Assembly: GCA_001643675.2 (NCBI GenBank)
Contig: LSRY02000015.1
Span: forward strand, 310,001 to 374,000
Reading direction: 5' to 3'
Length of the DNA stretch: 64,000 nucleotides
Origin: Monocercomonoides exilis PA203
Lineage: Eukaryota > Protista > Preaxostyla
The notes under the pieces were generated by a model. It was not told the origin of the DNA, did not search any database, and saw nothing but the letters and a program-made list of their open reading frames with translations. Below are positions 27,001-62,592 of the stretch, in pieces. The translations under genes were made by a program, and so were the position numbers. Position 1 is the stretch's first letter. Each line of letters opens with the position of its first letter.

Positions 27001-29382
27001 CTTCGCCAGCTCCAGAAGCCTCACTGTCTCGTCGCTGTGGTCTGCCAGCGTCTGCTGAGTGAGCGACTTGAATGAAGCAACAAGTGGCTTGATGATGCTG
27101 ATGAGGTGCTGGCTCATCCGGTCGTAGCGGAAGCGGATCAGCACAGCGATTGAGGTCAGCTGCTGGAGGAGGACTTCTTCGTTGTCAAGGGGATCTGAGA
27201 GGAGATGGGAGAGGAGAAGTGAGAGGAGAAGGGGGAAAGGAGGAAGGAGGAAGGAGATGATGGGATAGAGAAGAGGATACAATGAAATGAAATTGAAAGA
27301 AGAAATGACATAATTAGCATAAAATATTAATAGATTGGGCAATAAATTGAACATTTCACCAACAGTAATAAAGTTTGAAAAAGTGAAAAAAAAAATATCA
27401 AAAAATATTTTTTTATATCATCTTCTAAGCAAACCATCAAAATTCGTTGCTCCATCTACCACAGCCTTAGCGATGTGGAGTCGTGTATTGATGTACTGAA
27501 TAGCGATATCTGGCACATACTGCTCCCAGCCAGGGCTTGTCTGAGAGAGGCTGCTGTTCTGCAGCGAGGGATCAGAGCCAGGTGTGACTGAATCCATCGT
27601 CGACGGGGAAGATGCAGACATCGGCGATGCAGAAGAAGAAGGAGAAGGGGAAGGCGAAGGAGAGCCAGAAGGAGAAGCAGAAGAAGGGAAGACGATCGGG
27701 CGGGTGACTAAATGCCCTCCGATTTGCAGCCCTCTCGAGCGCTGGCGCATGTAGCTTTCCTTCGCGCCTGCTGCATTGACCATCTTCGACCAGAGGCTGA
27801 GGAGGTAGTAGGCGCTGTTCTGCGACCACTGCCAGTGCTCGAACACTTTGAAGGTGAGGGCAGACACTTCTTTGATGTAGAGAGGGTAGATCGGCAGGCA
27901 CGTCAGCTCTGCGTGGGTGAAGTTGCAGCGTGTTCGAAGGAGCAGGCGGCACAGCTGGTGGAAAATGTCGTGGTCGGATAGGCCTGAAGGAGAAAAAAGG
28001 AGGATGAGAAGGAGGAGAAGAGAGGAAGGAAGATGTGGTTTATTGAATGAAGGTGAATTTATAGATGAATTTTTGAATTTATAAAATACAGTTTGCATTG
28101 AAAATTCAAAGGAAGACGGCAAAAAATTGTGTGTGAGATGAATGAAATTCAAGAAAATACTTCAGGAAAATTAAAAAAAAAATCGCAAACCGATTTTCTG
28201 CTGCATCACAATAGTCGTTCTTTGTATCACAAACTCGACAAACTTCACAGCTCTTTCATTGCTCGAAAAGATGTCCTTTCTGATCAGTACGATCAACCCC
28301 AACACATCCAAAATCGTCGCCCGCGCCATCGCATTCACGTCGTTCTCTGCCACATACAAGTCAAACAGCAGCCCCGTCAGCTCGTCATTCTCCACAAAAG
28401 GTGCCCACGAGGCTGGCGCATGCACAATCGCTGTCTCGTTCTGCTGCTCGTCGTAGTACGAGTTCACAAAGTCGAACGACCAGCACAGACGCATCAGGGA
28501 AAGAGCTTGGTTCAGCAAACGAAGCGTGAGGGTTTCTGTGATTGGAGTGATGTGGTTTTGAAGTAAACATTTGATTTAAGTTTGAAAGGAGAAAAAAGAA
28601 AAAAAAAATACATACTATCAAAAGACGCATATGTTTTTGCCACATAAGCCTTTAAGTATTGTAGAGAAACTTGAGTTATTTGAAGCAAAGAACCTGATCT
28701 GAATTGAAGTTGAACCTTTCAATTAATAAAAAAACAGAATTAAAACACATGTGTAGAAAAAAGGATTAAGCAAGCACACTCTCCTATGTTCAACCACAGA
28801 AAACACATTATCAGATCGATAATTAACTTCTTGCAAAATTGCATTTAATAACTCAAGGCCAACTAAACTGAGGTATATATTTCCCTCCAAAAATGGAGCC
28901 AATTCTGCTGTATCGACAGATTCTTGTCCAGCTGACCATGAGAGCTTGAACAATCTTGCTAGAAGTGTGCAAACATTTGTTATAGTTGCAGTAACTTGTT
29001 GTTGAGTTTGATTGTCCTTTGGCTCGGATAAGAGCTTTGGAGCTTTTGTACAAAGAAATTGAATAACAAGAAGTCCTAAAAAGCAAACATTTAATTCAAC
29101 AACAGAAATTTATTTGATTTATTGCAAACGATGTGTTTTTCTATCTGAAACGGATAAAGTGCTCCAAATTTTTGGGGCAATTTCTTTAAATTTTGTTGAA
29201 GCAAATAAAATAGCACTAGGGACATTCGAATTTAATATGACATATTTGCACTGGTCCAAAAAATTAGGAGTTTGAGAAATAGCCTGTAGTTGTCGATGTA
29301 TCTCGGAACGGTTCACTTCTGCTCCACCAAAAAGTAAACTATTGGTCAACTGCTCTATCGTTTGCAATTCTTGTTCGTTCAT
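24092..29382 (-). CDS. XPO7: Exportin-7 / RanBP16-17-like karyopherin, multi-exon
   Basis: Exons read FDFVNSYYDE...HAPASW, FHQLCRLLLR..NF..AEL, WQWSQNSAYYLLSLWSKMV, DPLDNEEVL.QQL, QLAWMVHIVG, LFLQLRGI and NSRQSRLCFDQNSPNPIVIFR, all typical of exportin-7. GC-rich exons, AT-rich introns; the 3' end is approximate. Confidence 0.9.
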
Positions 29383-29582
29383 GGGATTTTGTTAATAATA
29401 TCACTTGCTAATTTGTGTATAACAAGTAATGGAGAAATTATGTTGATCTTTTTGGCAGATGCCCATTCTATATAATTTACAAATACATTTGACTAATTTT
29501 GTAAGAATTTGATTTCATTCCCAGCAAATATTAATTTTGTTGCAAAGAACAAATAAAATATATAAAGATTATCAAGATTTTG

Positions 29583-33160: not shown

Positions 33161-34936
33161 TCATCTCATCCTCTGCTCAATCTCTCTCATCAGCTGGAAA
33201 GCGCTGGGGCGGTAGTTCGGGTCATACAGCAAGCAGGAGCGCACAATCGAGCGCAGATGATGGTCAGGAATCTCCTCTAGCGGCGGCTTGTCTCCTCTTT
33301 TGATCCTCCTCAGCGCCTCTGTCGGCGCAAACGTGGCATACGGCACACGCCCCGTCGCAATCTCCCAGAGAACAAGACCCAAACTGAACACGTCGCTCTG
33401 CGGAATGGCTGACGTTGTGATCGTCGGCAGCGGTGATGTGATCGGAGGCAGCTCCACTTCTTCTACTTCCTCAGCCTCGTTTGTGATTCCTGCTCCTTCT
33501 GCACCCACACCCACACCCACACCCACTCCCATTCCCATTTCTGCCGCAACCCCTTCATCTCCAACCACGGGTCCTTCAGCTGTTGCTATCATCCCAGCTT
33601 CCAGCGCTGTCGGAGAAGCTGCCTGTGGAATGCCTCCGGCTGCTGTGTTAAGCGCAGCCTCGTTCAGGTTGGTTTGTTTGACTTCGCCTGCTGAGTCGCT
33701 TGCCTGATGAAGGTGCTCCTGTGAAATGACATCATACCCAGGCTTGCTCACTCCATCTCCTCCTCCTCCTCCTCCTCCTCCGATTTCTTCTTCTTCCTCA
33801 ACCAATTTCTTTTCTTCTTTCTCTTCTTTTTCGTCTTCTGAATTGGCGTCAGATTGCAAAGGAAGTTCCCTCAATTTCGTCAAATCTTCATGCGCTTTAA
33901 TCAGCGCCTCCTCATCTTCGTTCATCTCTTCTTGACTTTTTTGTTTTTTCTTCTTTTTGTCTTTGTCTTTGCTGTCTTTCGTCTCATCCTTTTCATTATC
34001 CTTTTCTTTCTCCTTCTTCTTGTCCTTTTCTTTCTCTTTCTTCTTCTTTTCTCCCTGTTCTTTTTTGATCGCTGATAGTTCCTTTGTCATATGCATCATC
34101 AGCTCCGCTTTCATTTCCGGCGGATCTTCTTCTCCCAAAACTGACATCCCAATTTCCGGAGCGCACCATCGCTGTGTATCGTCTCCGCCAAATGGATGTG
34201 ATGATTCCCCTTGCTGAACAGGAGGAATAATATACAGAATGTCCTTTTCATCAATCAGGATGTTCAAAGGAGAAAGAACTCCGACGACTGCGGGCGGATG
34301 ACTGCCGTGAAGATATACAAGAGCACGTGCTAATGCAAGCCCAACTCGGTACGGATCTAACGGAGGTCTCCCTGCTGATATCGCTGTGTTATCAAAAGTG
34401 CCATCAGAAGAAGTTGAATAAGACGTTGTTGTTGTTCCCGTCGTTGACCCATGACGCCCCTTCTTTGGCACAGATATGTAGTCGTACATATTCACAAGAG
34501 AGCGATATGGTTTGTTGTGGATCCGTGTGAATAATGATAATGATGAGTGAATGTAAAATACGTTGAAAGGAGGGATTGTTGACATCGCAACTATTTCCTT
34601 ATGCTGAATCATTTCATATGGAAGGGAAACGGTGTACCAAAGAGTTATAGGTTGGTTAGTGTTTCTTCTCTCTGGTTGATCCATGCTTTCTTTTCTCATT
34701 GCCTCTGTTAAAAGCGCATATTGATCGCCAACAGCGCCCTGAATACTCCCTGGCGCTACAAGTGCGTTTGCATCATCAGAATTGCTTTCAAAGTCGTCTT
34801 TATTCCCTGAAGACGTCTTGTGAAAACGATTTTTGCAATTGCGGAAAACTCTGCGTAAGCATAGAACGCCAATCCCACTTCCTACTCCGACTATTAACGT
34901 CCCTAGAATTGAGCTGATAATAATCAGCGCCTTCAT
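33161..34936 (-). CDS. Single-pass membrane TKL-type pseudokinase
   Basis: N-terminal TM; LARALVYLH, VLSPLNILID (HRD lost), WCAPE, SDVFSLGLVLWEIATGRVPY and C...DPNYRPS; a ~250-aa charged insert follows APE. Confidence 0.8.
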   Translation of the reverse strand: MKALIIISSILGTLIVGVGSGIGVLCLRRVFRNCKNRFHKTSSGNKDDFESNSDDANALVAPGSIQGAVGDQYALLTEAMRKESMDQPERRNTNQPITLWYTVSLPYEMIQHKEIVAMSTIPPFNVFYIHSSLSLFTRIHNKPYRSLVNMYDYISVPKKGRHGSTTGTTTTSYSTSSDGTFDNTAISAGRPPLDPYRVGLALARALVYLHGSHPPAVVGVLSPLNILIDEKDILYIIPPVQQGESSHPFGGDDTQRWCAPEIGMSVLGEEDPPEMKAELMMHMTKELSAIKKEQGEKKKKEKEKDKKKEKEKDNEKDETKDSKDKDKKKKKQKSQEEMNEDEEALIKAHEDLTKLRELPLQSDANSEDEKEEKEEKKLVEEEEEIGGGGGGGGDGVSKPGYDVISQEHLHQASDSAGEVKQTNLNEAALNTAAGGIPQAASPTALEAGMIATAEGPVVGDEGVAAEMGMGVGVGVGVGAEGAGITNEAEEVEEVELPPITSPLPTITTSAIPQSDVFSLGLVLWEIATGRVPYATFAPTEALRRIKRGDKPPLEEIPDHHLRSIVRSCLLYDPNYRPSAFQLMREIEQRMR

Positions 34937-35162
34937 CACAGGGCTCAATTTCAATTCCAAAAAATTGTCTTCTATCCCTTATTTAAAAAATGTGAAAGAT
35001 GAAAATTGATATTTTATTAGAAACGAATATTTAATCATTTTTTATTTATCCAAAAAAAGAAAATGAAAGAAAGAAAAGATGCTTTATTTATTATGCACTT
35101 TTTTTTTAAAAATAATGCATCTCTGTAATTATCAAGATGTGATTAGTATGTTTTGAAAACTA

Positions 35163-39626: not shown

Positions 39627-42600
39627 ATGTTCACAACTCCTGAATCAACATTATCAACGAGAGCATGCAGTGCGTGGAATGAATTAAAAAGAATTGGTGG
39701 AGACAAAGTTGATGAGCTTTTATTATTTTTATTAACAAAGAACAAAGCAGCTGCTGATGTGGCAAATACAATTCGTCAACAATTAAATGGTAATTGTCAA
39801 TTGATTTCAAGTGAACTATTACCGATTTTTAACTGTGTTTTTTTGGTTTTTTTGTTTTCAATGTTTCACTTTGAATTATCAGAGTCTCTGAACACACTGA
39901 TGAATGATCTGGCTGTTGTTTACAATGCCTCACAAAAACACACACAGACAATGATTTTGCAAGCCGTTGCTCGTGATTATACACTGAAAAAACTTCAAAA
40001 TTTTGGCTTCGGTATATCAAGAGGACAGCACAGTTACGCTTAAAAAACTTTGCAAAAAAACAATGATCAAATTATACCTCCCCAAAAACCAACACTTCCA
40101 ATGTGCAAGCGTGGTTTGAATATATATTCTGTGTTTCTTTTATGAAGATAATAATTCAATTTTAAAAGGACTTGAAGAAGATGCTTGGCACAAAGGAAAC
40201 ACGTGGATGATTAATCATTCAACCGAAATGTTTGCATCGATGATTTGCAATCAAAAATCCTCAAAGCACTTAGAAGAAGAACAGTTTTTGGATGAATCTG
40301 CCTGGGATGATTTGATTTGCATATCATCAAATGACAAAAGACAGGAACAACCAAATAAAATAGGAGAAGAGTTATCAATAAAGTATCAGAGAATTCCTTC
40401 AAATGAAGCATCCGACTTTCAATCTCATTTTGACGATCGTTCAATATCAGCTGATTGCGAAACTGAACACGACTCTGCTGGATTTCGAAAAAAGAAAATT
40501 CATTTTTTGAGAGAAAATACAGAAACATCATCAAAAGTGATTCAAGGGAAAATATTCATGACAAACAGAGCAAATAATTCTCCCACATTTATTGCTGATT
40601 CAATTATTGAGAAAGCAAATATCGATTGCGAAAATAATAGAAACATTCCGTTTCAAACTCGTTCTGAAAAAAACTCATTGTCTCCACCAATAATTCCTCC
40701 TTATTGTCTAACTCACTTTATTGATTCTTTGGATCAGAGACAAGAAGCCAATGAATCATGTCTGACAACATTGATGAAAACAGCTGACAATTCAAACGCT
40801 AGCTTTCATGCAACATCAGAGACATGTCCTGTTAATGAATTTCATTCAAATATAAGGGTGAGCAAGAAATCCTGTTTAGGAAATTTAGCAATCCAAATGA
40901 ATTTGCCATCGATTGAGAAAAGAACAGATCAAAGTCACATGGAAAATCCTGATCGAGAAGATTTGACACATATTAATGAAGAAAGCGTGGAACTCAATTC
41001 TCAACCAAATAAAAAGGACAACAGCAAAAACCAATATGATTCAAAATGTCAAACAATAATTCGCATTCACAATCCACAAACAAAAAAGTTATCAGAAAGA
41101 AAGGGATTAATAAATTTAGGAAATACATGTTATTTATCATCGTTATTGCAAAGCTTTTCTTCTATCATATCTATAAATCCTTCAATGATCAAAGAACCGA
41201 ATTGCAAGACGTGTCTTTTAAAAATGTTGTTGGATGTTTGCTCTCAAATTCAAGGAAATTCAAATTATGTGAAGGAATGGAAGCCAGTCCTAATTGATGA
41301 ATGGGAGTCATTCTGTGGTTTCGGAAAAAGAAAACAACATAATGTTTCAGAATCATATGATTTTCTGATGAAACGGCTCATAAAAGACAATGCATTTCGT
41401 TAGGACAATATTAATATTACCACTTCCAACCACACAAAATGCAAATTTTGTGTATTTTCTTCAATTATTGTAAGCACTTCCAACAATATAATCATCAATT
41501 CAAATTCAGTGGAAAGAGGGCTGAAGAAATATTTATCGAAGGAACAGCTTTCAAAAAACAATTCAGTTTTATGTGGCAAATGCGGAAAACTTAATGAAGC
41601 GATAAAATGAACAGAGATTCGTGATTATCCACAATTATTAACAATTGAACACGAATGTTCATCCATGAAGCTATCAATTCCACCAAAACAATTATTCTTT
41701 TTTGTCAAAAATCATCACAGAACATTTGCAACTACTTCAATTGAATTTCCAAACTCGAAATCTTCAGCTCAACTTCAAACAAAAAGAAGTTATTCTTTAA
41801 TTGGACAAATTTTATTCAGGCAAACTGATCAATTTCATGGACATTATATTTCATTTGTCAGAGATTCTTGCATTGATAAAGAATCCTGGTTCATTTGCAA
41901 TGATGCTTTCGTTTCAAAAGTCAATGCTCAAAGTTGGAAACAAGCATGGGAAAATTTATTTAAAGAAGGATATATACCATCATTATCATTTTACATTGAA
42001 GATAACACAAATAATAGAAAAAATTCAATTCAAAAAGGAGGAGCACTTTCATATGTTCAACTATATGAAAAGCAAAGCAAAAAAACTGTTAACCAAAATG
42101 CACTTGAAGGAGCTATGTTAAGAGCTAACAATGACGAAGCATTTTCAATATCCTCATCAAACTTCAACAATAATTTCCCATTAAAACGGAATCAAAAATC
42201 AACTCGAATTTTTTCGCCAAATGAAAAAATACTTATTTTCAAGCCGAAATCAAGACTATGGAAAGAATTTCAGGAAGAGACAAACATTAAGTTATCACTT
42301 TCTTATTTCTACAAACTTACGACACAGTTTTATCGAGCAAAAAAGAGAACTGATGTATGTGAAATGTGTGAAAAACTTGATCATTTGGAAAGAAAATTGA
42401 GGTCTGTTCCTTTTTCAAAAAGAAGCAAATCGGATATGAAAAATTTTTCAATTTTGAAAATGCACAAAACATACGCGGAATGGCAACGAAAAAATTTTCA
42501 AGAAACAGTTCATGATTTGAAGGAGAATGAAGTGATATTGCTGTTTGATTTCAAAGAAAAATGGAAATTGCCGATCAGATTTCACCAGCTTCAGCAAGAA

Positions 42601-43491
42601 TATTATGATTACAAACAATTATCACATTTCACAGTGATTTCTATTCAAAAACAAAATGATCAGTATATAAAAAAAACTTTCAACTTTCTATCAGAATGCC
42701 TATCAAATGATTTTCGATTTGTAATAGAGTGTTAGCAATCGGTTTTGAAAAGATCATTCTACAAAAACTCTTCGACTTTCAAATTTTTCTGTGATTCCGG
42801 TCCTCATAACCGGAATCGCTTTGTGCTTCACTTTCTATTGCGAAGCAAATCTTCTTTTCTGAAAGGGAAAAAATGTGAAGTGAATTATTTCACAGAACAT
42901 CACGGAAAGAATCTTTGTGATGGTGAATTCGGTGTTCTGGTCAACTCGGTTAATAATTTCCTTTCTGATGAGAATGTTTTATCATTGCAGGATTTAATTT
43001 CTTTTTTCAAAAAGCATGTTGAATCTCATACAGTTTCACAAGTCCCTATTTCACAAAGGCAAAACCAATCAACTTCAACAAATATTTCTTCATCAGAGAA
43101 TTCTCAACTTGAATTATCAGTGAACGACAGATATTTTGAAGAATATATTTCATCACAACAGAAAGTTTGGCCTTCTTTTGTCATTCCACACATGAAAGAT
43201 TTCTTGTTTTTTGAAAGCGAGAATAATCATGTATTCGGATCTGCAGTCGGCTATTCTCCACAGCGCTGTTTAATTGATCTTCAAGGAACAATAAAGAATG
43301 AAACAGTTTTGAATGAAAGAAAAACATGTTCAAAGCAGCAAAACTCACAAAATGTCATCAATGTTCCACAATCTTCAATTGAAATGATTTGCAGACGTAA
43401 CAGACTTTTGCGCAATTCATTAACATTTGATTTCTGTAATTGTCCCATATGGGTGATTTTTTTTGATATCATAAAAAATTCCGACGTTTGA
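39627..43491 (+). pseudogene. USP-deubiquitinase / Sola-like DDD transposase fusion, copy 1 (four in-frame stops)
   Basis: Exons 39627-39789, 39883-40110 and 40169-43491. USP Cys box GLINLGNTCYLSSLLQ, His box GHYISFV and WFICND. Transposase LFDFKEKW, FFCDSGPHNRN and EHHGKNLCDGEFG. Stops at 40041, 41401, 41608 and 42733 align with K, K, W and L of copy 2. Confidence 0.85.
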
Positions 43492-48500: not shown

Positions 48501-49500
48501 CCTTCATTCATTGCTCCTTTCACCACATCCACATCTTTCATTTCCTCCTCAAACAACTTGTCATCAGTAGACGCAATGTCACCCTCCGATTTCAGAGTCA
48601 GCATCCTTTCGCATGTCAGCGACGAATACAGCGAGAGAAAATCTGTATTCTTCTTCTTCTCTTTCCTCCTCTTCATCCCTTCCAGCGTGGCAAGAATGCT
48701 GCTTCGTAGATCCTTTGCGTGTTTGTTGGAACTTTGTGGAGGGATCAATAAAGAAATCTGATTGAAGATGAAGCAGATGCCTGTGATTGAGAAATAGATG
48801 AGGGAAATGTTTTGTTTGAAGTTGTTTTCTTTAACCAGAAGAAATAATCTTCGTCTTCTTGGAATAGAACCATGTCATCTTTGCTGCATTTCTTCCCTTT
48901 CGCTGTCATTTTGGATTCATCTTTTGGATCCCGGAAAAACGTCTTGCTTCTCCGAGACGAGGAAGAAGACGTTGAAGAAGAAGAAGAAGATGATGATGAT
49001 GATAATGATAAAATCACTGAAGACGTATCACAAGCGCACTTGCTTTCTTCAAGCTGATTTCGATGCTTCTGACGAGCTGCCATATAGCACTTTCAGCTCG
49101 CTTTTCCTTCTCTCTTCGTTCTCTTCGTCCTCCACAGAAAATAGTCCATCTCCTCTTTAGCACCTTCTCATTGAGTTCGCATTGCCCACCTCTGCTTATC
49201 TTCATTACGAAATAAAACCCAAATAGTCTTTGTGTTCAACTAATTTTCCATATTACAGCCATTTCAGCAGGAAGGAATTACAAGAGATGTTCTGCCTTAA
49301 TCAAATGACTCCAAATGGATCACTCGATCTACTTTGCTTTTGGAAGTGCCATCTTTCTCTTTCTTCAAAGAATCCTCATGTTCAATTCCTTTATCTTTCT
49401 CTCTTTCTCTCTCAATTAGCGATGTCAATTTCCCTTCCATATTATCTCCGCTGAACAATATTTCATTCTTCTCTCTCATTCTCCATCTTTTTGCAGTTCT
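45520..49500 (-). pseudogene. Disrupted PP2C (PPM)-phosphatase-like gene with long low-complexity regions
   Basis: ESCKRRSTMED (~46930-46970) and GIYGVFDEHLGSDTAMYLASHF (~46385-46450) match PP2C motifs 1-2. They lie in different frames, with many stops and no later PP2C motifs. Extent approximate. Confidence 0.55.
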
Positions 49501-49561
49501 CATTGTCTTCATCTCCTTCTATTCCTTCTCCCTCTTCCACTTTCTCTCTTCCATCAACTGA

Positions 49562-49927
49562 CTCGCAAGCATCGTCTCGCTCATCTCCATTGCCCTCCTC
49601 TTCGCGTTCTTCTCTCCCAGCTTTCGGTTCAGCCCCCGTCTTGTCTCCCGCATCTTCACTGCCCCTTCCCTCCGCTCCCGCTCCTTCTCGTCCTCCCGCA
49701 GCATCACTGACACCTTGTACCCTTCCCCCACATTCATCTTCTTCTGCACCGTCGTCAGGCACGAAAGCTCCGATTCCTTAAAGAACTCCCCCCGCGACTT
49801 CAGAAGCAGCGTCGGCGACATCCCTTCTGCTTCCCCAGCTGCACACCGCCTCCGCAGCTCCTGCTTCCCCGACAATGCCCGTTCTGCCTCCCACAACTCA
49901 AACAGCCCAATCGACTCCTGCACTTTG
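49562..49927 (-). repeat. 366-bp GC-rich coding-like block; inverted copy of 61181-61546
   Basis: Both translate identically (VQESIGLFELWEAERALSGKQ...MSETMLA); the boundaries are sharp. Confidence 0.95.
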
Positions 49928-50780
49928 CACTTCGACTGTCAACTCTCGGCACGCTATGTTTCAGCTTATCACCAACCAAATGGACGCACACCAACGCCGC
50001 ACCATCTGTTTTCTGCTCGCAATTCTGAGACTAGCATATTCAACAGACTCGTCTGCTTCGTCAAAATAAGCCATGTGAGAATGTTTTCTGTATCTGAATC
50101 AGAGAAAAAATAAAATAAAATTATGAAATGGCCTTAAAATTATAATTATTAAGTTCAAAATTAATTTTAAAAAAAAATGAAGATTTAATTAGATAGATTG
50201 AACAAAATAACCTTTCTAATTTTCTATTCTGCCCCTTTCTATTCTCATTCCTTTATCTCTCCTCCTTCTTTAGTTCTCATTCGTTTAATTTCTCTGCAGT
50301 TCTGTTTCTGCAACAAATATCTCCCTTTCGCTGCATAAGACATGAGCATTCTTTTGCCTTTCTTGCTCTTCCGCTGCTGTCTCCAGCCGACAAACAATTG
50401 AATTCCCCGTCTCATTGCGTTTGTAACTTAGCGCTGTGAAAGCACTTTCACATTAAAAATATGCCACTGCTTCAATAATAGCTGCAACTCACCAAGAAAA
50501 TGAATGAATGAATGATGTTTCATTCGTCTTGTTGGTGCACGAGCAGCAGAGTGAACTTAATCAGTGCCAGAGAATATGTTCGGTTGAAAGCAGAATCTGA
50601 TGAAATCTTTGATTTTTTAAAAACCATTTCTCATAAAAGCCGCAACGCAAGATAAATACAGGCCAACAGTATAAGAATCAGATATTACTGACAAACAAAT
50701 ATAAAATAAAAAGATTTTGATTATATTTTGACATATTTTTTAAAAAAAGTGGAAAATAAAAAATATATTTGAGAAATAAT

Positions 50781-51257
50781 AATATTACTTCAAACATTAA
50801 AAAATAGAAAGTTTAAGCAAGCTGGTTAAAAGTTGGAAAAGCAAGTGGTTTTGAAAAAATGAAAGAAACAAAACTCCAGCTTTAATCAGAACCATATCTT
50901 TTTGAATTCTTGAGTGTTAATCGTAAAAAAACAAATATCAGAAAAAAAAATTGAAATGTACATTTTGTTGTTGTGCGTGCAATAAGAGTTAGCAAACGAT
51001 TTTTTTCAGATTTTAAAACGCCGTATTCGAAGAACAAAAGCTCTGTTTCTTCGTCCAATCAATGAAAATGACTGAAATGACAGAATCCTCAGGGGTCTTT
51101 TTTTTGCATAAAATGATTGCTTTCACAATTTTAACTTCATCTATTGCCAAAAAACTGCATTCTTCTACCTGCAATTTTCGCCCTTTACAGCTTATTTTTT
51201 TGATCTTTTTTTCGCAAAAAAAATAAAATAAAGGGTTGGATCCTTTTTTTCATTCAA
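50781..51257 (-). repeat. Left inverted-repeat arm (pairs with 58804-59259 and 56144-56341)
   Basis: The reverse complement of 50844-51236 reads the same as 58804-59196, with a degenerate extension to 50781/59259; 51060-51257 pairs with 56144-56341. Confidence 0.95.
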
Positions 51258-51919
51258 ATCTGTCGTTAATTACATGTCATATTTATTTATTTTTCATGCA
51301 TTGCTGAATGATTTAATGAATGATTGTTTCAAAAATGTGTTTATTTTATGTTATTGAGTTTTGCTGAAAATCATAGAAAAATGAGTGAAATGAAAGAAAA
51401 TACGTTTAAAAATAACAATTGTTCACCAATCAAAATGACATAAAAAAACAAAAAGTACTTCATGATATTAATCATTAGAAAAATAGAAAACAATCAGAAT
51501 ATTTTTGATCAGATTCAATAACTTTCAAAAAAACATAATTCTATCACTTAATCATAAAACTATCTCCAAATGTCAACTAAATATCAACAATTTTGAACAA
51601 TGAAAAATATAAGAAGAAATAGCACTATTTCAACAAATTCATGGAATCAAAGACAATTCCTAACAAAAAAGAATACTTATATAAAAAGTTCAAAAACTAA
51701 CTTGTCTATTTTCCCTTTGTTTTCCATCCACTCTCCACTTTCTGATATTTCTCTCACTTTGACTCTAAAAGATCAAATCCAACAAAGAAAAAAGACAGAC
51801 ACAATGATAAAACAACATTTCACACTCTCGTCAACTCTCCCTTCCAAAAACCTCACACAAAGATCAATGAATTCCCTCACAACTCTCTCTATTAATGAAT
51901 CTCGATATATACAAATATA

Positions 51920-51963
51920 ATAGGGACAATAACCAATTTAATAATAGGGACATTATAGGGACA
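51920..51963 (+). repeat. Three ATAGGGACA direct repeats
   Basis: Copies at 51920, 51944 and 51955; a related AGGGACA at ~52137. Confidence 0.85.
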
Positions 51964-51988
51964 AAAAGCACAAGAAAACAATCGGATT

Positions 51989-52126
51989 CTAACTGTTGTG
52001 CACCTAGGAGGCTGTTCGTCGTATCCAGGTCCGGATATTGCAGCCCAAAAACTGCAATATCTAATACGAACAGTCATGTCCAGCACCCTTCCGATAGAGT
52101 GCCAGCTAAGCATACACAACAACTAG
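51989..52126 (-). ncRNA. Putative structured RNA (multi-stem) immediately 3' of the USP-transposase stop codon
   Basis: Hand-folded on the minus strand: outer stem CUAGUUGUUGUGUA/UGCACAACAGUUAG, CUUAG/CUAGG, hairpin GCACUCU/AGGGUGC, CUGUUCGU/ACGAACAG and GAUAUUGCAG/CUGCAAUAUC. The non-Watson-Crick pairs within these stems are G-U only in this orientation. Confidence 0.6.
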
Positions 52127-52130
52127 TTTC

Positions 52131-55100
52131 TTAAAAAGGGACACCATTAATACAATTTTGAGATTCATTAATAGAAGAAGAGTCAAGAAGAAGCTCAAAT
52201 CTCCTTGAAAGAAGATCTTGAGAAGATTGAGAAAGAAGAGAAGAGTTAGATGATGTGATATCAGAGTGAAATGACTTTCTTGATCTTTGGACTTTTTCTT
52301 TCATTGTTGAAGATTCGAGGGCAACCAGAGAGCGTTGAGGAAGATATCCAACAGCTGAAGCACAGACAAATGAGCCTTTGCGCTCAAAATACAAATAGTC
52401 TTTCATGTGAGGTATTGAAAGTGATGGCCATGAGATTTGTTGAGATGGTACATATTCTTCAAAGTACCTCTCATGTTCAAAGCTATTGACAGATGTTGAA
52501 GATGGTGAAGAGTTTGATGATGATGTTGGGAAAATGTTTGATTGTGAAGTTGAAGAAGCTGATGTCGAAGTGTTCATATTGTTTTCGAAGAAGTTGATCA
52601 AATCATGAAGTGTGGTGATGTGTTCTGTCGAAAGATTGTTGTCGATTGCATTCACTAACGCACCAAATTCACTGTCACAGATATTTTTTCCATGGTGCTC
52701 AGCAAAGAAATTGAGTTGAGTGTTTTTCTTTTTTAGAAGTTTTGATTGTTTTGAGAGGATGAAGTGAAGAAGGAAGCGATTTCGGTTGTGTGGACCCGAA
52801 TCGCAGAAGAACTTAAAGGTGTGAGTGTCTGAGAAGAAGTGTCTTTTGATCACAGATTCCAGACACTCAATAACAAATCTGTGATCATTTGAGAGGCAGT
52901 CGGAGAAGAAGTTGAAAGTTCGTTTTATTTGTTGATTATTAATTTTTTGAAGAGAGATGATTGTGAATTGAGAAACCTGTTGATAGTTGAAGAATTCTTG
53001 TTGAAGTTGATTTTTTCGGATAGGGAGTTTCCATTTTTCTTTAAAGTCGAAGACGAAGACTGCTTCTCCCTCTTTCAAATTATCAACAGTTGATTGATAA
53101 TGTTTTCGTTGCATTTCTGCAACAAGACGATGTTGTCGAAGAAGTTTGAGTGTATGAAATTCGGCAGAAGAAAGTCCATTTTTATTTTGTGAAGACTTCA
53201 GTTTGTTTTCGAGATAGTTGAGTTTCTCGCACATTCCACAAAGATCTGTGCGTCTTTTCGCTTTGGAAAAGTTGGTAGTGAGTTTGTAGAAATGTGACAG
53301 AGAAACTTTGATGTTTGTTTCTTCTGTAAACTCACTCCATAATTTTGTTTTGGGCTTGAAGATTAATCTCTTTTCATTGGGAGAAAAGATGCCCGTTTTC
53401 TTTCTTTTATCTTTCAAAGCTTCCAATCCATAACTTGTTGAAATTGACGAAGAAAGTGGAAGAATGAAAGTTGAACGATGAGGTGGAGTGATGAATGGAG
53501 ACGATGATGATGATGTAGTCGTTGTTGTTGTGTTATTTGAAGTGTTTAAATTTGAAGTTTCTGAAGAAGATGATGAACCACCAAATTGAAGAGTTGACAG
53601 TGTTGGCTTTGTTTTTTCTTTTGAGTAGAAAGAAAGGGAAGGAGTGTAACCCTGGGAGTAAAGATCTTTCCATGAAGAACTCCATTTACCACTATCGAAT
53701 TCAGTCACTTCAGCATCATTGCAAATACTCCAAAAACTGTTGATACCACTCTTCCTTTTCACCACAGCTATATAATGTCCATTTCTTTGATCCAGACGTT
53801 TGTATAGTATTTGTCCAGAAAGATGATAAATAATCGTTTCCTTATTGCTCTCTTGAAGATGTTGAATGTTTTCTGTTGAAAACCCTTTGCAGAAAGTGCG
53901 CTGGTTAACACGATCTGTTTCAATCAGAAGCGTTCTCGAAGGAGCAGAACTAGTAGCATCAGTGCATTCATGACAGAGGGCTAGCACCTCTGGAAATGCA
54001 GCCATTTCCTCCCATCGAGCAGCACAGCATTTCTCTTCACATTCATCGCAATAAACATTGTTCTTTCCGTTCAATATCTCAGTAGAAAAGAGAGAAGATA
54101 GACCTTTATGAGGAGAAGATGAATTAATAACTACATTGTTGACAATTTCATTGAAACGTGATGAAATTTTTTGGCATTTTTGGCATTTGAAATGAGTGAT
54201 TAAAACAGGATTGAAGGTGTCCTTATTTATCAACTCATCTTTTTGAAGAAGTTGGTGAAGATTGTCAAATGCCTCAGCCACGTTTTGCTGCTGTCTGCTT
54301 CCATAGTTGCAGAAATCTTCCCATTTGTCAATAAGAGATGGGACCCATGAACGCACTGCCGTTCCATCTTTAGCCAGTTGTTGACAAACACTTATAACAC
54401 GCGAAGATGTGTTCTTCAAAGATGTTTGTTTTTTGAATAAAGATGGTTTTTGAATAGTTATTGAAGAGAAACATTGAAGAAGAGAAGCCAAATAGCATGT
54501 GTTGCCTAAGTTTGGCAATCCTTTTGTTATTTGTGATGTTTTGCTTGAAGAGTTTAATGAATTTGAAGAAGATTGAGAATGAGAAGAATTTTTTGTTGAA
54601 TTTTCTTTGGCATTCTTTTTTGAAATATTTTTTGAAGAATTATTTTGTGGAGATATTTCTTTATTTGAAGATTGAATGCTTTGTTGTTGAACTGTTGAAG
54701 TGTCATTCTCTTTAGAAAATGAAGAAAAGAGAGTTTGAAATGCTTGAGGTGGAATTAATGTGGGTGAAGTGGCATAATCAACTAATTGCTCACTCACAAA
54801 CACATTATCATTATGAAATGATGAAGAATTTATTTTTTCTTTCAATTTTTTTGTAATTGAAATTTGTGAAGAAGAAGTTTTTGATTTGAATATTTTGTGA
54901 ATTGGTATTGGAGATGGAGAAGAGTGACGTTTGTGATTTGAATTTTTATTTTGATTTTTTGTTGAACCCCTTTCTCTCCTTATTGGAGTACTGATAGGGG
55001 CATCAACGGCTTGAGATGGAGAAGAATTTGTTGAAGAAGAATTTTCATGTGAAATGGTTTCAGATTTTTTGTTGAGTTGAGATGATGTTGAAGAAGAAGA

Positions 55101-55838
55101 AGATTGTTTTTTATTTGAAGAAGAATTTTCCGTAATTATTTCTTCATCCCAAGCTGCTTCGTCAATATATCTGGCGTAATCTGGCTCAGCTCGCTGCTTT
55201 TTCTTTGCTGACTGAAGAGAAGTTGAGGCTTCAGTCGAATGGGCTAACATCCAGTTGTTGCCCTTTTCCCAGTCCTGTTCATTTAATCCTTAGAAAACAA
55301 TGAAAATAAATAAAAAAAAATTTTTGATAAAAACAAACAACTTTTGCAAGACGGAATGTGAGGTTTCTGAGGCGGAATGATAAATCCTTGGTTTTTTTTT
55401 AGCGTTTGCTTCGCGTAAATAAATTTTCCCTCTGTGACATCATATCCATAGTCCTGTAAATCGGACAATGATGTGTTGCGGGACAGCGCTTGTAGCATTG
55501 TTGTCTGAGTGTGCAACGGAGCGTTGTTGTACACCACAGACAGGTCTTCCAGCAGCTTCATGTGATATTCTGTTTTAAAAAAAAATAATTAATCAACAAA
55601 TCAAAAAGAAAAAAATCACAGAAAGGAAAAAATAATATTTTCTACACAATACAAAAAAATAAAAAACCAAACCATTCAAAGACTTCAGTAAATCATTTAT
55701 TACTGAAGATGATTGCCTGTAAGTGTAAAACAAATAGGCAAGCAACGAATCCACGTCATTTCCGCCTATTCGCTTTATTTCTTGCCATAGAACATTGCAT
55801 CGAGAATTTAATGTCGATTCGCGTTTAGAAAACGACAT
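52131..55838 (-). CDS. Intact USP-deubiquitinase / Sola2-like DDD transposase fusion, copy 2 (~1180 aa, 3 exons)
   Basis: Exons 55838-55673, 55569-55342 and 55288-52131 splice in frame (GT-AG). USP: GLPNLGNTCYLASLLQ, QQNVAE, CQKC...CDEC, GHYIAVV, CND. Transposase: KRLIF...LWSEF...VSLSHFYKL, CGMC, VFDFKEK, CDSGPHNRN, EHHGKNICDSEFG. Confidence 0.9.
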
Positions 55839-56143
55839 TTTTCTCTAATAAATGTTTTCTTATGGTTAATCACAATCATTCTAAAAAAAATTTTTTTTAA
55901 TTTAAAAAAATATGTATTGTTATTTTTTCATTATTAGACTATTTCCAAAATCGTATAAAAAATTTTTAACGTGATTTGAATTAGTAAAAAAAATATAAAA
56001 AAATCTCTTTTCAGAAAAAAATTTAAAAATATTATGAATACTTTTATTGAAGTTTTATTGAAAATTCATCACATAAATGAATATGTCTTATGAAAAAAAT
56101 CATTCTCATATAAAAATATTTTAAAAAATATTAAATATCTTTC

Positions 56144-56341
56144 TTGAATGAAAAAAAAAATCCAACCCTTTATTTTATTTTTTTTGCGAAAAAAAGATCA
56201 AAAAAATAAGCTGTAAAGGGCGAAAATTGCAGGTAGAAGAATGCAGTTTTTTGGCAATAGATGAAGTTAAAATTGTGAAAGCAATCATTTTATGCAAAAA
56301 AAAGACCCCTGAGGATTCTGTCATTTCAGTCATTTTCATTG
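56144..56341 (+). repeat. Internal ~200-bp copy of the repeat arm, located between the divergent genes
   Basis: Inverted relative to 51060-51257 and direct relative to 58804-58979. Confidence 0.95.
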
Positions 56342-56491
56342 TTTCATTGAAAAATTCTCGTTTTTGATTATCACATTTTCTCGATAAATAATAAGATTTT
56401 GAACTTTATTTTAAAAACATAGATCATAATTAATTTTAAGATTAATAGTTTTATTTTATTTTATTTTAAAAATTATATCAATGAAAATCTG

Positions 56492-58389
56492 ATGTGTCCC
56501 ATTCATCGGAATTCTTCAATGTCTTGTCAGAAGTTGTCTTACTCTCGATCTTCTCGGATTCATTCAAGCTTGCGGAAAAGCAGTATCATGAATGATGTTG
56601 ATTCATTATCAAACTTTTTTGGACAAATGTCGATTGATCATGCGAATAAAGTGCTCTTTGAGTTTTTTTGCAAATCTTCAAACGGAAATATTTTTCTGAA
56701 TAATCTAATGAAAAATTTTGGATGTTTGTTTCTTGTTTTATTTTTTGTTTCTTTGTTTTTGTTTTATTTAACATTTAATTTCTTTATTATTATTTTTTTT
56801 TTTATATTTTTTATATTCATTTAAAAATAAGCACCATTACACAAAATCGTACAGAAGATGAAGCTCCCTTTCAATGAATCGAACCCGCATATCCAAGAAA
56901 AAATGCTGCTGTGCCTGACTGAATGGTTTTCACAACAAGAACTTGAGCAGGATTTTTCTTACAGAATCAAATGCATTGGAGATAATATGATGGAGTGTGA
57001 AAAAGAAAAATCGACAAATTTGACATTACGGAAGCCGTCTTCAACTTCATGTTGCAGTGTCATTTCTTCAGACGAAGATGAGGCTGCTGATCAAATGTAT
57101 GAAGAAGAAGAAAGTGATGAGGAAGAGTCAGAGAGTGATGAAGATTTTATGAAAAGAAAAGAAAAGAAATGCAATGATATTAAAGGAGGAAAGATGGAAA
57201 TAGAACTCGAGGTTTGTTTTTTTTTATTTTTTTTGAACTTGCCTGATTCATTTTGACAGGCAAATCAATAATTTTTTGATAAATTTTTTTGTGTGTTGTT
57301 CAGAAGCGACAGACACCAATTGAAGCTTTAGGAAATCCTTTTTCCATTTTATCAACAGTTCCTCAGATTGGAAGTTTTTTTCAATTTCCTCCTTCTTTGC
57401 TATTCCCGACTCGACCTTGTGCAAAAGAATCTCGCTCATATGTTCAAGTGTTGTGTGATTGTGGAAGGGAATTGTTCAATTTTGGAGCGTCGTGTGCCTT
57501 GGCATCAGTTTGCCAGTGTTTGGCTTCATTTGGGGTGACTTGCGACGTCAAAAGGAAGCGTGGAGGGGCATTTATTTTTGGAAGACTGTTCAGAGCAATC
57601 CGTTCATACAGCGTGACCAGTAAAATCTGGGGAACGAAATCATTCAAATCATTCATCGAAAGAAATGGTGGGAGCATTACTGATCCAATGGGAATTACAA
57701 CAGCTTATAATTCTGTTTTGAACAGTGCAGCAACGGAGGGGTGCAATATCAAGAAGGATTTCACTGTGAAGCAGTCATCATTCAAATTGTGTGGGAGTTG
57801 CAATCATGTTCGTGTTCACAATCAGTGCCCTTCACTGTATGTGGCAATTCATCATCCATCAATAATTGAGGGGCTGAATCAATATTTAACAGCGACGGAG
57901 CAAACGGTTGATAAAGAATTTTGTATTGATTCTTACTGTGGGAGGAGAACAGTTTTTTGGCAATGGAATCAAATAGACAGATTTCCCAAGATTCTTTCCA
58001 TCTATCACAGTTTTAAAGATCATTGTCCATTAATTCCGCCTCCAAAAACTATAACTTTCAACGGAAATGGATCGACTCCAAAATCAATGGTGGTGAAACC
58101 TGGCTCAGCGAAACAACAGACATATGATTCGTTCAACTTTCCTCAGACAGAGTTTTCCTTCATTGGTTATATCCTTCATTCTATGAAGCCTTTGCCTATT
58201 GGACATTTTATTGCAGTTGTCGTTGATGGAATAGATGAATCAACTGGGGAGCTAAGACTGTTGGAGTGCAACGATGGACTAGTCTCACGTGTGAATTCGA
58301 AGTTCTTCGATGCATATTGGAAAGCGATGGCAAATGAAGGATGGAGCGGAGCAATGTGCTTTTGCAGAATAAACCAAACGATTGAATAA
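56492..58389 (+). CDS. Stand-alone USP-like cysteine protease sharing the N-terminal domain of the fusion transposase (3 exons, ~565 aa)
   Basis: Exons 56492-56723, 56832-57211 and 57304-58389 splice in frame. Cys box LFNFGASCALASVCQCL, CGSC...CIDSYC, FPKILSIYH, GHFIAVV and ECNDG. FNESNPHIQEKMLLCL...ELEQDFSY resembles YNNAPLHTQTTMLQAL...DLQDYGY of copy 2. Confidence 0.75.
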
Positions 58390-58803
58390 TTTGTTATTTA
58401 TTTATTTTTATTTTTTTTTTTTATTTGAAGTTCTCTTTTTTATTTGTTTCTCTCTTTTTTAACATTTCAGTTAATTTTCATTTTTTTTTATTTTTGTTTC
58501 CTTTTCAATGAAGTTCTCAAAAAACCAAATTTTTTTGACTCTAATTTTTTTTCATTTGATATTATTCTTCTGAAATAAAAAATTGTTTGAAATCTTAGAA
58601 AATTGAAGGAAAAAAATAAAAAATAAACAAAATACAAGAAACTCAAAAAAACAGACTTTTGATTAAAGTAAACATTTTCATTATAAACATCTGATAACTC
58701 TTCACAAATCAAATTATTAACAATAACATTGCATAATATATTAAAAAAATAACAAATCATCAAGTATGAATATTCATTAATTTCAATGAATTTGAAGATC
58801 ATG

Positions 58804-59259
58804 CCCTTTATTTTATTTTTTTTGCGAAAAAAAGATCAAAAAAATAAGCTGTAAAGGGCGAAAATTGCAGGTAGAAGAATGCAGTTTTTTGGCAATAGAT
58901 GAAGTTAAAATTGTGAAAGCAATCATTTTATGCAAAAAAAAGACCCCTGAGGATTCTGTCATTTCAGTCATTTTCATTGATTGGACGAAGAAACAGAGCT
59001 TTTGTTCTTCGAATACGGCGTTTTAAAATCTGAAAAAAATCGTTTGCTAACTCTTATTGCACGCACAACAACAAAATGTACATTTCAATTTTTTTTTCTG
59101 ATATTTGTTTTTTTACGATTAACACTCAAGAATTCAAAAAGATATGGTTCTGATTAAAGCTGGAGTTTTGTTTCTTTCATTTTTTCAAAACCACTTTCTT
59201 TTCGAACTTTTTACAGGTTTGTTTTAAACTTTCTATTTTGTAATATTTATGATAATATT
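58804..59259 (+). repeat. Right inverted-repeat arm (pairs with 50781-51236)
   Basis: Reads as the reverse complement of the left arm over ~390 bp, then becomes degenerate. Confidence 0.95.
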
Positions 59260-61169
59260 ACAGTTTTTTCATTATGTTGGAAAACTGCTCAGTTTGCTTC
59301 CTTTTCAAAGAAAAGGAACCTTGCTTATTGATCATTTGACAAATCTTCTCGTTGGCGAGCATCATAATGAGAAAGGAGCAGATTATTATATAGTCATTGG
59401 GAATCAAATAAAGTTACGGAAGATACATGATATTTGGTGCAAGAGATGAAAACAAATTTGGCTGATGTTTCATTGAATGAAGACAAAAGAGGATGGAATT
59501 CTGTGAAGGACAAAATCTGCACAATATTATATAGCATTTTGGAATGTTAGGCAGGGAGAGCAGTTTGGGGTATTTTTTTTGGCAAGGAAAGTGGCTGGCA
59601 ATATCAAGGGAAGGATATTTATCACAAAAAAGGCAACAATTCATTGGAAAAAAGAAGAACCCTAAAATATAGGTTATATTTAAAAGGTTTTCCTGTTGCT
59701 CAGACTGGGAAGACAGACATGGAAAGCGACGAAATTCTATTTCTGATTCCGCAATTGCTTCAAAAGAGTGGAGAACAGCCAACAACGAGACATTCAATTA
59801 TTGAATACTTTTCGGACATCAAACAATTTTTTGACCAGCTGCATCTGAATTCTGCTCTGAAACAATTTTTTAATTTTTGCGAACCACAAGCTTGACATTG
59901 ATAATTTGGTGTTTCTGTTTGCCAAACATTCATTTGACCATCAAATGCATCTTCTCTTGCAATTCCTCCTCCTCTTCTTTTTCCTGGATATCTGTGTCTT
60001 CTCCGTTGCGTGCCAATCTCTTCAAGGGTAATCTCGAACTGAACAACCTGGCGAATGCGAATTCTCAACTCTTTTCAATTGCGGCAGGTGCATGTAATCA
60101 GAGCACATTCAGCATGCTTCTCATCAACTATCACTCTTCTTTCACCATTCCTTATCTCTGCCTTCTCACATTTTTCCCTTCGCTGATTGCAAGATCCTCC
60201 TCTTTGTGTTCTTCCAGCTTGCCTCGATGCAGCTATTTCCTCTTCATTTTGTGAATGTGTTCACAAGCAGAGTTTTGTTGCAGCTCATTGGGAAGAGTGA
60301 GAAGTGTGAATGAGAGAGAGGGAGGGAGGGAAAAGAATAAAGGAAGGAAGTTGATCAGGGAGGTGGTTTTTGGATTTGATAATTAGGATGCCACCGTAGA
60401 AGAAGAGGAAGAGAAGAAAGAAAATTGAATCGATGATGATTAATTTGTTTCAATTCAAAACACTGGGACTGAAGCATTCAAAGGCATGAATTAATATATT
60501 TACAATTTTTTTTTTATTATTTTCTTTTGATTTTTGTGTGAAATAATGTGTATCCTCTTTTTTTAGTCTTGATGGAAGCCCGACGAATAGAAACATTTGT
60601 GCACACTTCTGCCTCTTCTTCGACTTCTTCGTTTGTGTTCTCTACAGGGATAGTCATTGGGACAGACGACATAGCACAGCTAAAGGCACTACCACAGGAA
60701 GATATACCGACTGATGTTGGGCTGCAGATGTGTGGAACATGGGAGCGGAGTATGTGCGCGTCCCTGGTTGTGAAGCATGTGTTCCAGCCGCTGTCGATGC
60801 AACTGAATGCGCCAGCAGGAATAATGATATCTTCGTTTGTTGCAGTGGTGCTGATGGTGCGCGTATGTGGAGAGGCGCTGCACCCTGCAGCACCTGGTCA
60901 ATTCCATTACGCAACGATCTTTTGAGCGCATGGGGTTGCAGAGTATCTGGAGGCAGTGACGCACATAATATTGGCTGATCTATTTTTTGGTGAAGGTGAT
61001 GTTGATGCCAAATGTTGTGCTGTCATGTGATCTGTCTGTGATGGCGGCGTATTTCGTGGTGGGGAAGGGGGGAATCACCTGAAAGAGAAGCTGATGAAGT
61101 TCAGTGGTATCTGTCCATTGCGATTCCACTACTGAAAAGAGCATATTGTGGAGATGATGATAATGGAGA

Positions 61170-62592
61170 TTGCGGAAGTTCAAAGTGCAGGAGTCGATTG
61201 GGCTGTTTGAGTTGTGGGAGGCAGAACGGGCATTGTCGGGGAAGCAGGAGCTGCGGAGGCGGTGTGCAGCTGGGGAAGCAGAAGGGATGTCGCCGACGCT
61301 GCTTCTGAAGTCGCGGGGGGAGTTCTTTAAGGAATCGGAGCTTTCGTGCCTGACGACGGTGCAGAAGAAGATGAATGTGGGGGAAGGGTACAAGGTGTCA
61401 GTGATGCTGCGGGAGGACGAGAAGGAGCGGGAGCGGAGGGAAGGGGCAGTGAAGATGCGGGAGACAAGACGGGGGCTGAACCGAAAGCTGGGAGAGAAGA
61501 ACGCGAAGAGGAGGGCAATGGAGATGAGCGAGACGATGCTTGCGAGGCAGAGGAGAGAAGAAGCGAGGATAAAGTTCTATTTGGAGCAGAGGCAGAAAGG
61601 GCGAGTGTGGAGGGGAGATGGGTGGGGTGTGGAAGAGCATGCGAGAAGACGATCAGAAGCAGAAGCAGACGACGGAAGAGAGGAAGGGGAAGAGGGGAGA
61701 AGAAGGAGAAGAAGGAGAAAGGAGAGAAGGCAGCGAGAATTGCGGCAGGATGGAGGATGAGAGAGGAGAATGAAAGGAGGCAGAGGGAAGAACAAAGATT
61801 GGAAGAGGAAGGAGAGATGAGGAGTTTGAGGAGGATTTTGAGGGAGAGACGCCGAGAGGGAGAAGGTTTGGAAAAGGGGTGGAGAAAAGGGCGTCTGCAT
61901 CTGCAACTGCGAAAAATCAAAAGGAGATGATATTTCTGTATTCGCAGCCATTCAATGTTTTCATCGTTAATCCGCACCGAATGGAGGAGAGGATGGTGCT
62001 GAGGGATTCTGTACAGTCAGGAGAAGAGGAGGAGACGTTGCAAGTGGATGACGATGAACATTGCCACAGCCTCCGCCAACAACACTACTACCACCGCCAT
62101 CATATTTTGAGATACGAGCGGACTAGCGATAGCGAAGATGCAAATGAGAGTGGAAATGAAGATGGAGAAGACAGAAGTGGAGATGAAAAAGAAAGTGGAA
62201 CGGGAGAGAGCATGGAGCATGAAGAGCAGGGTGGAGCGAGGCAGAGCAGAATGACGAAAGAAGCGGAAAAGGAAACACAGCAAAAAGACCAAGACAATGT
62301 CCAGGACGAGGGGCACGGGGATGAAGGGGAGAAGGAGCGAGAGAAATTTGAGGGGGAAGCTGAAGCACAAAATGGATCCACAGGAGACGGATTAGGAGAG
62401 CCGCTGCAGGCAACGTCTCCGAGCTCACCAGAACTGGATGAGCTTGAGCCATATCGCTTCCATCCGCGGCCAGTGCGGCACAAAGCAAGCGAAGAGAAGG
62501 GGCAGCGTCTTTCATTTATCACGACATTGGAGCCATCGGCAGCCACAGTATCTCATTTTCTGTTTGGCTCGCTGACATCGTGGACAAGTTGA
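61170..62592 (+). pseudogene. Fragmented charged/low-complexity hypothetical gene
   Basis: ORF pieces 61170-61760 and 61879-62592 with E/R-rich composition; no domain recognised. Confidence 0.3.
61181..61546 (+). repeat. 366-bp block; inverted copy of 49562-49927
   Basis: Reverse-complement match with identical translation. Confidence 0.95.

Follow-up and report, generated by a model that had tools for sequence, protein, structure and literature searches.

DNA transposons that are unrelated to one another repeatedly carry deubiquitinase domains; MULEs bearing Ulp1 exist as well. The HLE2 Helitron-like elements carry UCH (the Pfam name for USP), OTU, Ulp1 and Herpes_teg_N domains (PMC11417382). 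Helitrons and Helentrons possess VTD deubiquitinases, in some cases two VTDs or a VTD plus an OTU, which have been proposed to counter proteasomal degradation (PMC9741609). MULE transposases with a C-terminal OTU protease have also been described (PMC1702500), and VANDAL elements contain the accessory genes VANB and VANC, of which VANC counters silencing and has been traced to a captured host protein that is no protease (PMC13547354).

The locus described here lies in a window of 64,000 nucleotides from Monocercomonoides exilis and combines a gene for a USP-transposase fusion with a divergent gene for a stand-alone USP. As in HLE2, a DNA transposon stably carries a USP-type deubiquitinase domain; HLE2 elements are, however, rolling-circle, their domains lie near RepHel, and the accessible part of their description mentions no paralogue gene of their own transposase-protease fusion (PMC11417382). 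The likeness to the Helentron VTDs consists of two protease domains per element and of domesticated stand-alone offshoots, whereas the deubiquitinase and the transposon class differ, and, as far as the accessible text of that report goes, both domains sit in one polyprotein and the offshoots are described outside the transposon context (PMC9741609). OTU-MULEs resemble our locus in having a papain-fold protease on a cut-and-paste transposase (PMC1702500), but the Monocercomonoides protease is a USP, is located N-terminally to the core and has a paralogous second gene. VANDAL elements, too, move by cut and paste and possess a separate accessory gene that evolves fast; according to the accessible part of its source VANC is a non-protease of host origin (PMC13547354), whereas the stand-alone USP is a putative protease from the lineage of the element. 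In the largely open-access literature covered, no accessory gene paralogous to the element's own protease-transposase fusion was found. Such a gene is the new part here, while transposon deubiquitinases and accessory genes as such were already known.

With a probability of about one half, we think that the stand-alone gene encodes an old transposase-derived USP that would serve as an optional, trans-acting helper deubiquitinase of a small transposon sub-lineage. It is regarded as an optional accessory because the enzyme appears to be selected, the transposase family spreads in its absence and in one sub-lineage it stands head-to-head with the transposase gene. A protease of one lineage that occurs both fused and separate, in copies with and without it, provides a natural with/without comparison, and the separate form is a small enzyme with which transposase protection, counter-silencing or polyprotein processing can be tested. 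The existence of the stand-alone gene argues against polyprotein processing alone. Also, some of the repeat content of M. exilis, most of which is unclassified, thereby receives a name.

Structure of the stand-alone USP gene

The first-pass annotation of this DNA had described, head-to-head with the fusion gene and about 650 bp away from it, a three-exon gene with an acidic linker, a divergent USP that keeps its N, C, H and D residues, an ending W..M..EGWSGAMCFC and no transposase core. This description could be reproduced throughout: the two ATGs diverge with 654 bp between them (56492 for the stand-alone gene and 55838 for fusion B on the minus strand, the latter having been given as the start), the three exons join into one frame of 565 aa (Table 1), and the motifs NFGASC, GHFIAV and CNDG are found in it together with the mentioned ending. 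A ~120-aa N-terminal region is followed by the acidic linker and the C-terminal USP domain, and no similarity to transposases was detected within the gene or downstream of it. Both introns are T-rich and have GT..AG borders, and two alternative in-frame acceptors for exon 3 would result in proteins of 564 or 562 aa. The public annotation of the gene, P0001 (464 aa), begins within exon 2, so exon 1 is supported by homology and by the intron position, not by RNA.

Table 1. Features of the stand-alone USP gene, its fusion partner and the surrounding repeats (positions within the window).
Feature	Position	Strand	Remarks
Stand-alone USP gene	56492-58389	+	three exons, 565 aa, single open frame
Exon 1 of stand-alone	56492..56723	+	77 codons + 1 nt; absent from public annotation
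Intron 1 of stand-alone	56724..56831	+	phase 1, 108 nt; same aligned column as fusion intron 1
Exon 2 of stand-alone	56832..57211	+	shared N-terminal region ends ~56968; acidic linker ~57065-57145
Intron 2 of stand-alone	57212..57303	+	phase 0, 92 nt; no counterpart there in the fusion
Exon 3 of stand-alone	57304..58389	+	divergent USP domain; finger region with two Cys pairs
Catalytic residues of stand-alone (exon 3)	N263 (57478), C268 (57493), H505 (58204), D528 (58273)	+	
Divergent intergenic region	55839..56491	.	19% G+C
Fusion gene B	52131..55838	-	1183 aa, open frame: N-terminal region, USP, transposase core
Fusion gene B, exons	55838-55673, 55569-55342, 55288-52131	-	
Left arm, ~480-bp inverted repeat	50780..51260	.	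perfect over 393 bp, degenerate in the outer ~60 bp
Right arm, ~480-bp inverted repeat	58780..59260	.	
Third partial repeat copy	56144..56344	+	between the two genes
Outer inverted pair	49558-49933 / 61175-61550		376 bp

The partner fusion and its transposase core

The USP domain of fusion B matches Pfam UCH with an E value of 1.7e-14. The public fusion model P0034 (975 aa) splices out 54368-54978 on the minus strand, which is the stretch that holds the USP Cys box. The frame is open across this stretch and the Cys box is conserved in P0018, P0019 and P0042; the splicing in P0034 is probably a mistake of the annotation, by which USP-transposase fusions are concealed.

The transposase core (52131-53460, minus strand) contains the motifs DFKE / CDSG..N.N / HHGK..CD, which resemble the DDD motifs of Sola-type transposases. 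No match to it was obtained in Pfam, NCBIfam or the PDB; in the ESM Atlas 21 of 30 matches belonged to clusters of DUF7869 (score 0.93), a Pfam family that is presumably linked to Sola. The putative likeness to Sola-type DDD transposases consists of core motifs and of the DUF7869 Atlas clusters, while the USP on the partner and the absence of a Pfam transposase match by HMM set it apart. Sola elements produce a 4-bp target duplication and have typical termini; a candidate duplication, ATAT, is present here but lies within an AT-rich palindrome. No description of a USP-bearing Sola element was found in the largely open-access literature covered, and the accessible parts of two reports served as background on Sola elements only (PMC5751038, PMC10294476). 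L001, a weak metagenome match to the transposase, was discarded as an unrelated bacterial-type transposase locus.

A further fusion gene, copy A (39627-43491, plus strand), lies 9 kb to the left. It encodes a USP-transposase of a distant subfamily with 55% identity in the core and 37% in the USP, has in-frame stops and also possesses a phase-1 first intron. Its surroundings were found to contain neither a stand-alone partner nor long repeats.

The shared N-terminal region

A weakly homologous N-terminal domain with a phase-1 first intron at a similar position had been proposed for the two genes, and both proposals held. The first ~120 aa of the stand-alone protein give a nearly gap-free alignment to the fusion N-terminus at ~20-25% identity, and Smith-Waterman comparison with three fusion N-termini gave z values of 8.2, 6.0 and 8.3; of 2000 shuffles each, 0, 1 and 0 scored as high. 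Exon 1 by itself is not significant (z 0.9 and -0.9), and its addition raises the score against an HMM of the fusion N-termini from 9.1 to 16.1 bits, with 6.7 bits as the best value among 1160 decoy frames of the window. Intron 1 has phase 1 in the stand-alone gene as well as in fusions A and B, and in one-gap alignments to P0014 and copy A it falls into the same column (residue 78 of the stand-alone, residue 56 of the fusion).

This homology stops at QDFSYRI / QDYGYDV. Fusion residues 101-165 have no counterpart in the stand-alone protein (z -0.9), whereas between the fusion copies A and B z is 19.6 and 13.4. As the stand-alone protein lacks the half of the N-terminus that is best conserved among the fusions, the suggested targeting to DNA by a shared domain is doubtful, and for the remaining ~100 aa protein contacts are more likely than a reading of DNA. 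The shared piece presumably resembles the front of Sola-type transposases. In a model of the fusion relative P0014 (mean pLDDT 44; residues 51-110 at 69-82 and helical), the shared part is helical and the part absent from the stand-alone opens with a further helix; fold searches with this model resulted in weak USP matches by Foldseek and in nothing at Z of at least 8 by VIA. A helix-turn-helix may be supposed in the N-terminus, to which the two fold searches added no confirmation.

Truncated transposases act as repressors in other elements, and it had been considered that the stand-alone protein is a repressor of the transposase, in which case the N-terminal remnant would poison transposase oligomers or block the ends. 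The protein is in fact a truncated paralogue without the catalytic core, and the version of the element with this gene has few copies. However, the part in common with the fusion is ~20-25% identical and is devoid of fusion residues 101-165, and the signal of selection described below concerns the protease domain, which is dispensable for a dominant negative. A pure repressor role does not explain this selection and we consider it very unlikely.

Kinship and class of the USP domain

The stand-alone and the fusion USP domains are colinear (hhalign probability 97.5%, E 7.7e-12, 297 columns, ~20-21% identity), and the distance from the Cys box to the final motif amounts to 301 residues in all four stand-alone and in four of five fusion domains, with 299 residues in the fifth. 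A profile of the stand-alone USP searched against 1.84 billion (1.84e9) representatives gave five matches at E<=0.001, namely the stand-alone itself, P0044 (E 2.7e-38), the fusion USP P0018 (E 2.3e-8) and two artefacts, P0045 and P0046, which are Listeria-Bacteroides repeat proteins; against the PDB it found no USP at E<=1. Fusion USPs score 37-52 bits, and none of 60 giant-virus USPs (dereplicated from 74 usable ones among 120 loci) exceeds 6.2 bits. In a tree with 30 of these viral sequences, the stand-alone USP, P0044 and the fusion USPs stand on one side with a support of 100/100 and the stand-alone groups with P0044, which was reproduced with 20 other viral rows; the outgroup of this tree is viral and not made of host USPs, and long branches meet in it. 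P0044 itself is a protein of 888 aa whose long N-terminus is rich in Ser and whose USP, located C-terminally and belonging to this clade, is 26% identical to the stand-alone, and neither a transposase, nor the shared N-terminus, nor a Pfam match was detected in it.

On account of the deep USP split, the tree grouping and the profile matches, the stand-alone USP is, judging from its sequence, an ancient sister of the fused USP and not a recent truncation of the neighboring fusion. From the shared N-terminal piece we infer that descent probably went from the fusion to the stand-alone form. The claimed origin from the same family as the fusion is thus borne out by the nearest-neighbor USP, the N-terminus and the intron column. 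An ordinary host USP that came to lie beside a transposon by chance is largely refuted and retains a very small probability: N-terminus and intron are common to the fusion, the nearest relatives are the fusion USP and P0044, no ordinary USP was among the profile matches, and there are 12 copies and a second linked locus; in its favor is that the tree with its viral outgroup does not place host USPs directly.

The residues N263, C268, H505 and D528 are shared by every one of the 65 rows in alignment A4. With Pfam UCH, the stand-alone of the window reaches 20.4 bits and so stays below the cut-off of 23.9, and among seven stand-alone proteins scanned three pass (27.1-27.5), three are at 18-19 and one has no match; the first ESM Atlas matches of the stand-alone are UCH clusters (0.95). 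A Q-Q-D-x-x-E-F box is typical of USPs and binds the ubiquitin tail. It is missing from the stand-alone protein, where PMGITTAY is aligned to QQQNVAEAF of the fusion, and in A4 the Q30 and D86 columns of the Cys and Asp boxes are otherwise 90% conserved. The replaced Q/E box marks a divergent member and not a loss of the triad, and it may alter the substrate choice. A fold model of the stand-alone USP from a 4-row alignment had a pLDDT of 32.

Copies of the stand-alone gene and selection

The stand-alone gene is not single-copy, as 12 annotated proteins are found on 12 contigs, a sample that is biased towards intact ones. They fall into three subfamilies with 65-75% identity; six copies on different contigs share 97-99% identity among themselves, and P0004 and P0006 each combine parts of several subfamilies as mosaics. 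The Cys, His and Asp motifs are retained in ten of the 12 copies and the other two are truncated models (P0004 and P0007 are named as truncated), while the His box and the triad Asp are present in 11. Among the matches of the protein and profile searches there was no close relative outside M. exilis, and a metagenome search returned 311 pattern matches, none of which was a relative.

Columns that are identical in fusions A and B are unchanged across the stand-alone subfamilies in 79 of 110 cases versus 94 of 182 for the others (p 5e-4), and with columns defined by P0044 and fusion B the values are 50 of 68 versus 126 of 228 (p 0.005); the columns were defined without the stand-alone sequences. 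Seven of 18 listed coding differences are synonymous, which is uninformative on selection. We take the column tests as a signal that the stand-alone USP domain is probably under purifying selection.

Such selection could also be expected of a domesticated host family, that is, an old offshoot of the fusion that serves the host and was regained as cargo or spread by segmental duplication. The deep split from the fusion USP, with about 20% identity and long branches, is in line with this, as is P0044 as a further transposase-less member. Against it stand the dispersal of near-identical and mosaic copies, the truncated models P0004 and P0007, the lack of a close relative outside M. exilis in the searches made, and the fact that the stand-alone gene adjoins its own ancestral family at two loci, and we hold it to be quite unlikely.

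Linkage and abundance

Whether stand-alone and fusion genes occur together elsewhere was read from the order of accessions alone. Among 31 recovered fusion-family proteins with GenBank accessions, one directly precedes the stand-alone of the window and two directly precede the stand-alone P0002, where consecutive accessions give a transposase piece, a piece with the N-terminal region and the USP, and the stand-alone, which is the order seen in the window. Adjacency was thereby found for one of the 11 other stand-alone copies, with a chance of about 0.036 for random placement over an assumed ~18,200 accessions, a value that repeat clustering would raise. For the remaining ten of 12 no recovered fusion lies within 68 accession numbers. 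By accession order, the stand-alone gene is linked to transposase sequences at a second place too, and the fusions at the two loci are closely related: the USP half of the P0002-linked fusion is the closest of 11 scorable ones to the window fusion (82%), the two are sisters in the tree (99/96), and the C-terminal piece is tied third of 22. The linkage test is insensitive, as most fusion copies, copy A among them, are unannotated or unretrieved. Classified DNA transposons were masked ahead of de novo gene prediction, according to the accessible part of the report (PMC8767320).

Summed contig depth over 49500-58560, which is a rough ratio and no copy number and leaves subfamilies below 80% identity uncounted, amounts to 219-357 single-copy equivalents for the transposase core versus 2.2-4.6 for the stand-alone gene, and to 75-188 for the 5' part of the fusion and 3.5 just upstream of the fusion ATG. 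A single copy was taken as ~92, from unique exon-3 contigs with a depth of 90-98 in run X2; these contigs support that value, and so does an exon-2 variant contig at depth 267 that matches three proteins with this variant. Runs X5 and X6 gave low-depth pieces only and were left out of the scale. The depth suggests that the transposase family comprises some hundreds of copies. From the drop upstream of the fusion ATG it follows that most fusion copies lack this upstream DNA, and the fusion family has multiplied largely without the stand-alone, at least in versions that are at least 80% alike. The idea of a two-protease element therefore stands in part, as the pair recurs at the P0002 locus, but the two-gene form is a minority and not the standard structure.

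Inverted and direct repeats

As had been claimed, the stand-alone gene lies inside outer inverted repeats, and it is in fact enclosed by two inverted pairs. The ~480-bp arms (458 of 481 positions identical) include both genes, and repeated DNA runs on leftwards past the arm at 50780. Between the two genes lies a third, partial copy of this inner repeat, which the first-pass annotation had not mentioned; within it the stretch 56166-56341 is identical to 58804-58979 (176 bp), so that the stand-alone gene is bracketed by a perfect direct repeat. The tips are the least conserved part of the ~480-bp arms, the reverse of fresh terminal repeats, and as target duplication around these arms there are AT-rich palindromic candidates only. 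The depth of the left arm is 6-25-fold, and about 13-fold at 51210, compared to some hundreds for the core. Neither the borders of the high-depth core in copy B nor the surroundings of copy A showed short terminal repeats, and a search within the repeats for tRNA, Rfam matches and unusual folding gave none. The ~480-bp arms may delimit the elements of a small sub-lineage with both genes and have been homogenised by conversion, or they may be a repeat that accompanies the stand-alone gene. The outer pair was rejected as element ends, as it belongs to a coding-like repeat and the sequences that separate it from the inner arms are unrelated on the left and the right. This coding-like repeat with stops occupies 49000-50500 (minus strand) and 61175-61550; its 376-bp piece is inverted with 99% identity and has a depth of about 19-46-fold.

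If the ~480-bp repeat marks the gene and not the pair, the stand-alone could be a non-autonomous deubiquitinase cassette that is mobilised in trans, and the pair would go back to a single composite, of which a few copies were made later. The six near-identical copies on different contigs without a recovered fusion neighbor, the mosaics P0004 and P0006 and the bracketing 176-bp direct repeat speak for this, as does the repeat depth at 51210, which is close to the count of known copies, 12, and far below the depth of the transposase. However, the missing neighbors say little when 31 fusion proteins were recovered out of some hundreds of copies by depth, and the masking mentioned above (PMC8767320) bears on the same point. 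Moreover, seven of the eight members of the near-identical cluster have no EukProt source tag and are read as later predictions, and the fusions linked to the stand-alone at the two loci are mutual closest relatives. We regard such a cassette as unlikely.

Proposed role of the stand-alone USP

Under the preferred reading of an optional helper deubiquitinase, the USP-transposase of the element would have lost its transposase core long ago, which would have left the stand-alone USP. This enzyme could deubiquitinate the transposase, or else a host factor or a chromatin mark by which the element is held in check, and its replaced Q/E-rich box may cause a different substrate or a lower rate than in the fused USP. 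Both genes would be expressed from the shared divergent region of 654 bp, and the stand-alone would be mobile jointly with the fusion in the sub-lineage, for which the accession order provides one further locus. By analogy we favor a helper over a repressor, because Helitron deubiquitinases have been proposed to act against proteasomal degradation in the accessible part of that work (PMC9741609). Two counterpoints have to be considered: the fusion already has a USP and a second one needs a distinct job, and P0044, which has neither a transposase nor the shared N-terminus, raises the possibility that the transposase-free USPs of this clade are host-domesticated.

A more far-reaching version, which we offer tentatively and think unlikely, is that the stand-alone is a split-off arm against the host. 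An ancient USP-transposase duplicate with altered specificity would then reside in two-gene elements as well as in recently amplified cassettes of its own, and would disable a ubiquitin-based control of some hundreds of Sola-like copies.

Other features of the window

Kinase-like genes with Pfam PK_Tyr_Ser-Thr matches are located at 4387-12056 and 33161-34978 (both minus strand), the former including a hydrophobic segment and being very large in its N-terminal part, and a reverse transcriptase fragment is found at 1151-1756 (minus strand; RVT_1, E 1e-8). Further genes are an Enhancer-of-polycomb-like gene, which is a weak assignment (18559-23745, plus strand), an exportin-7-like gene (26521-27417, minus strand) and a C2HC zinc-finger gene (29535-32111, plus strand).
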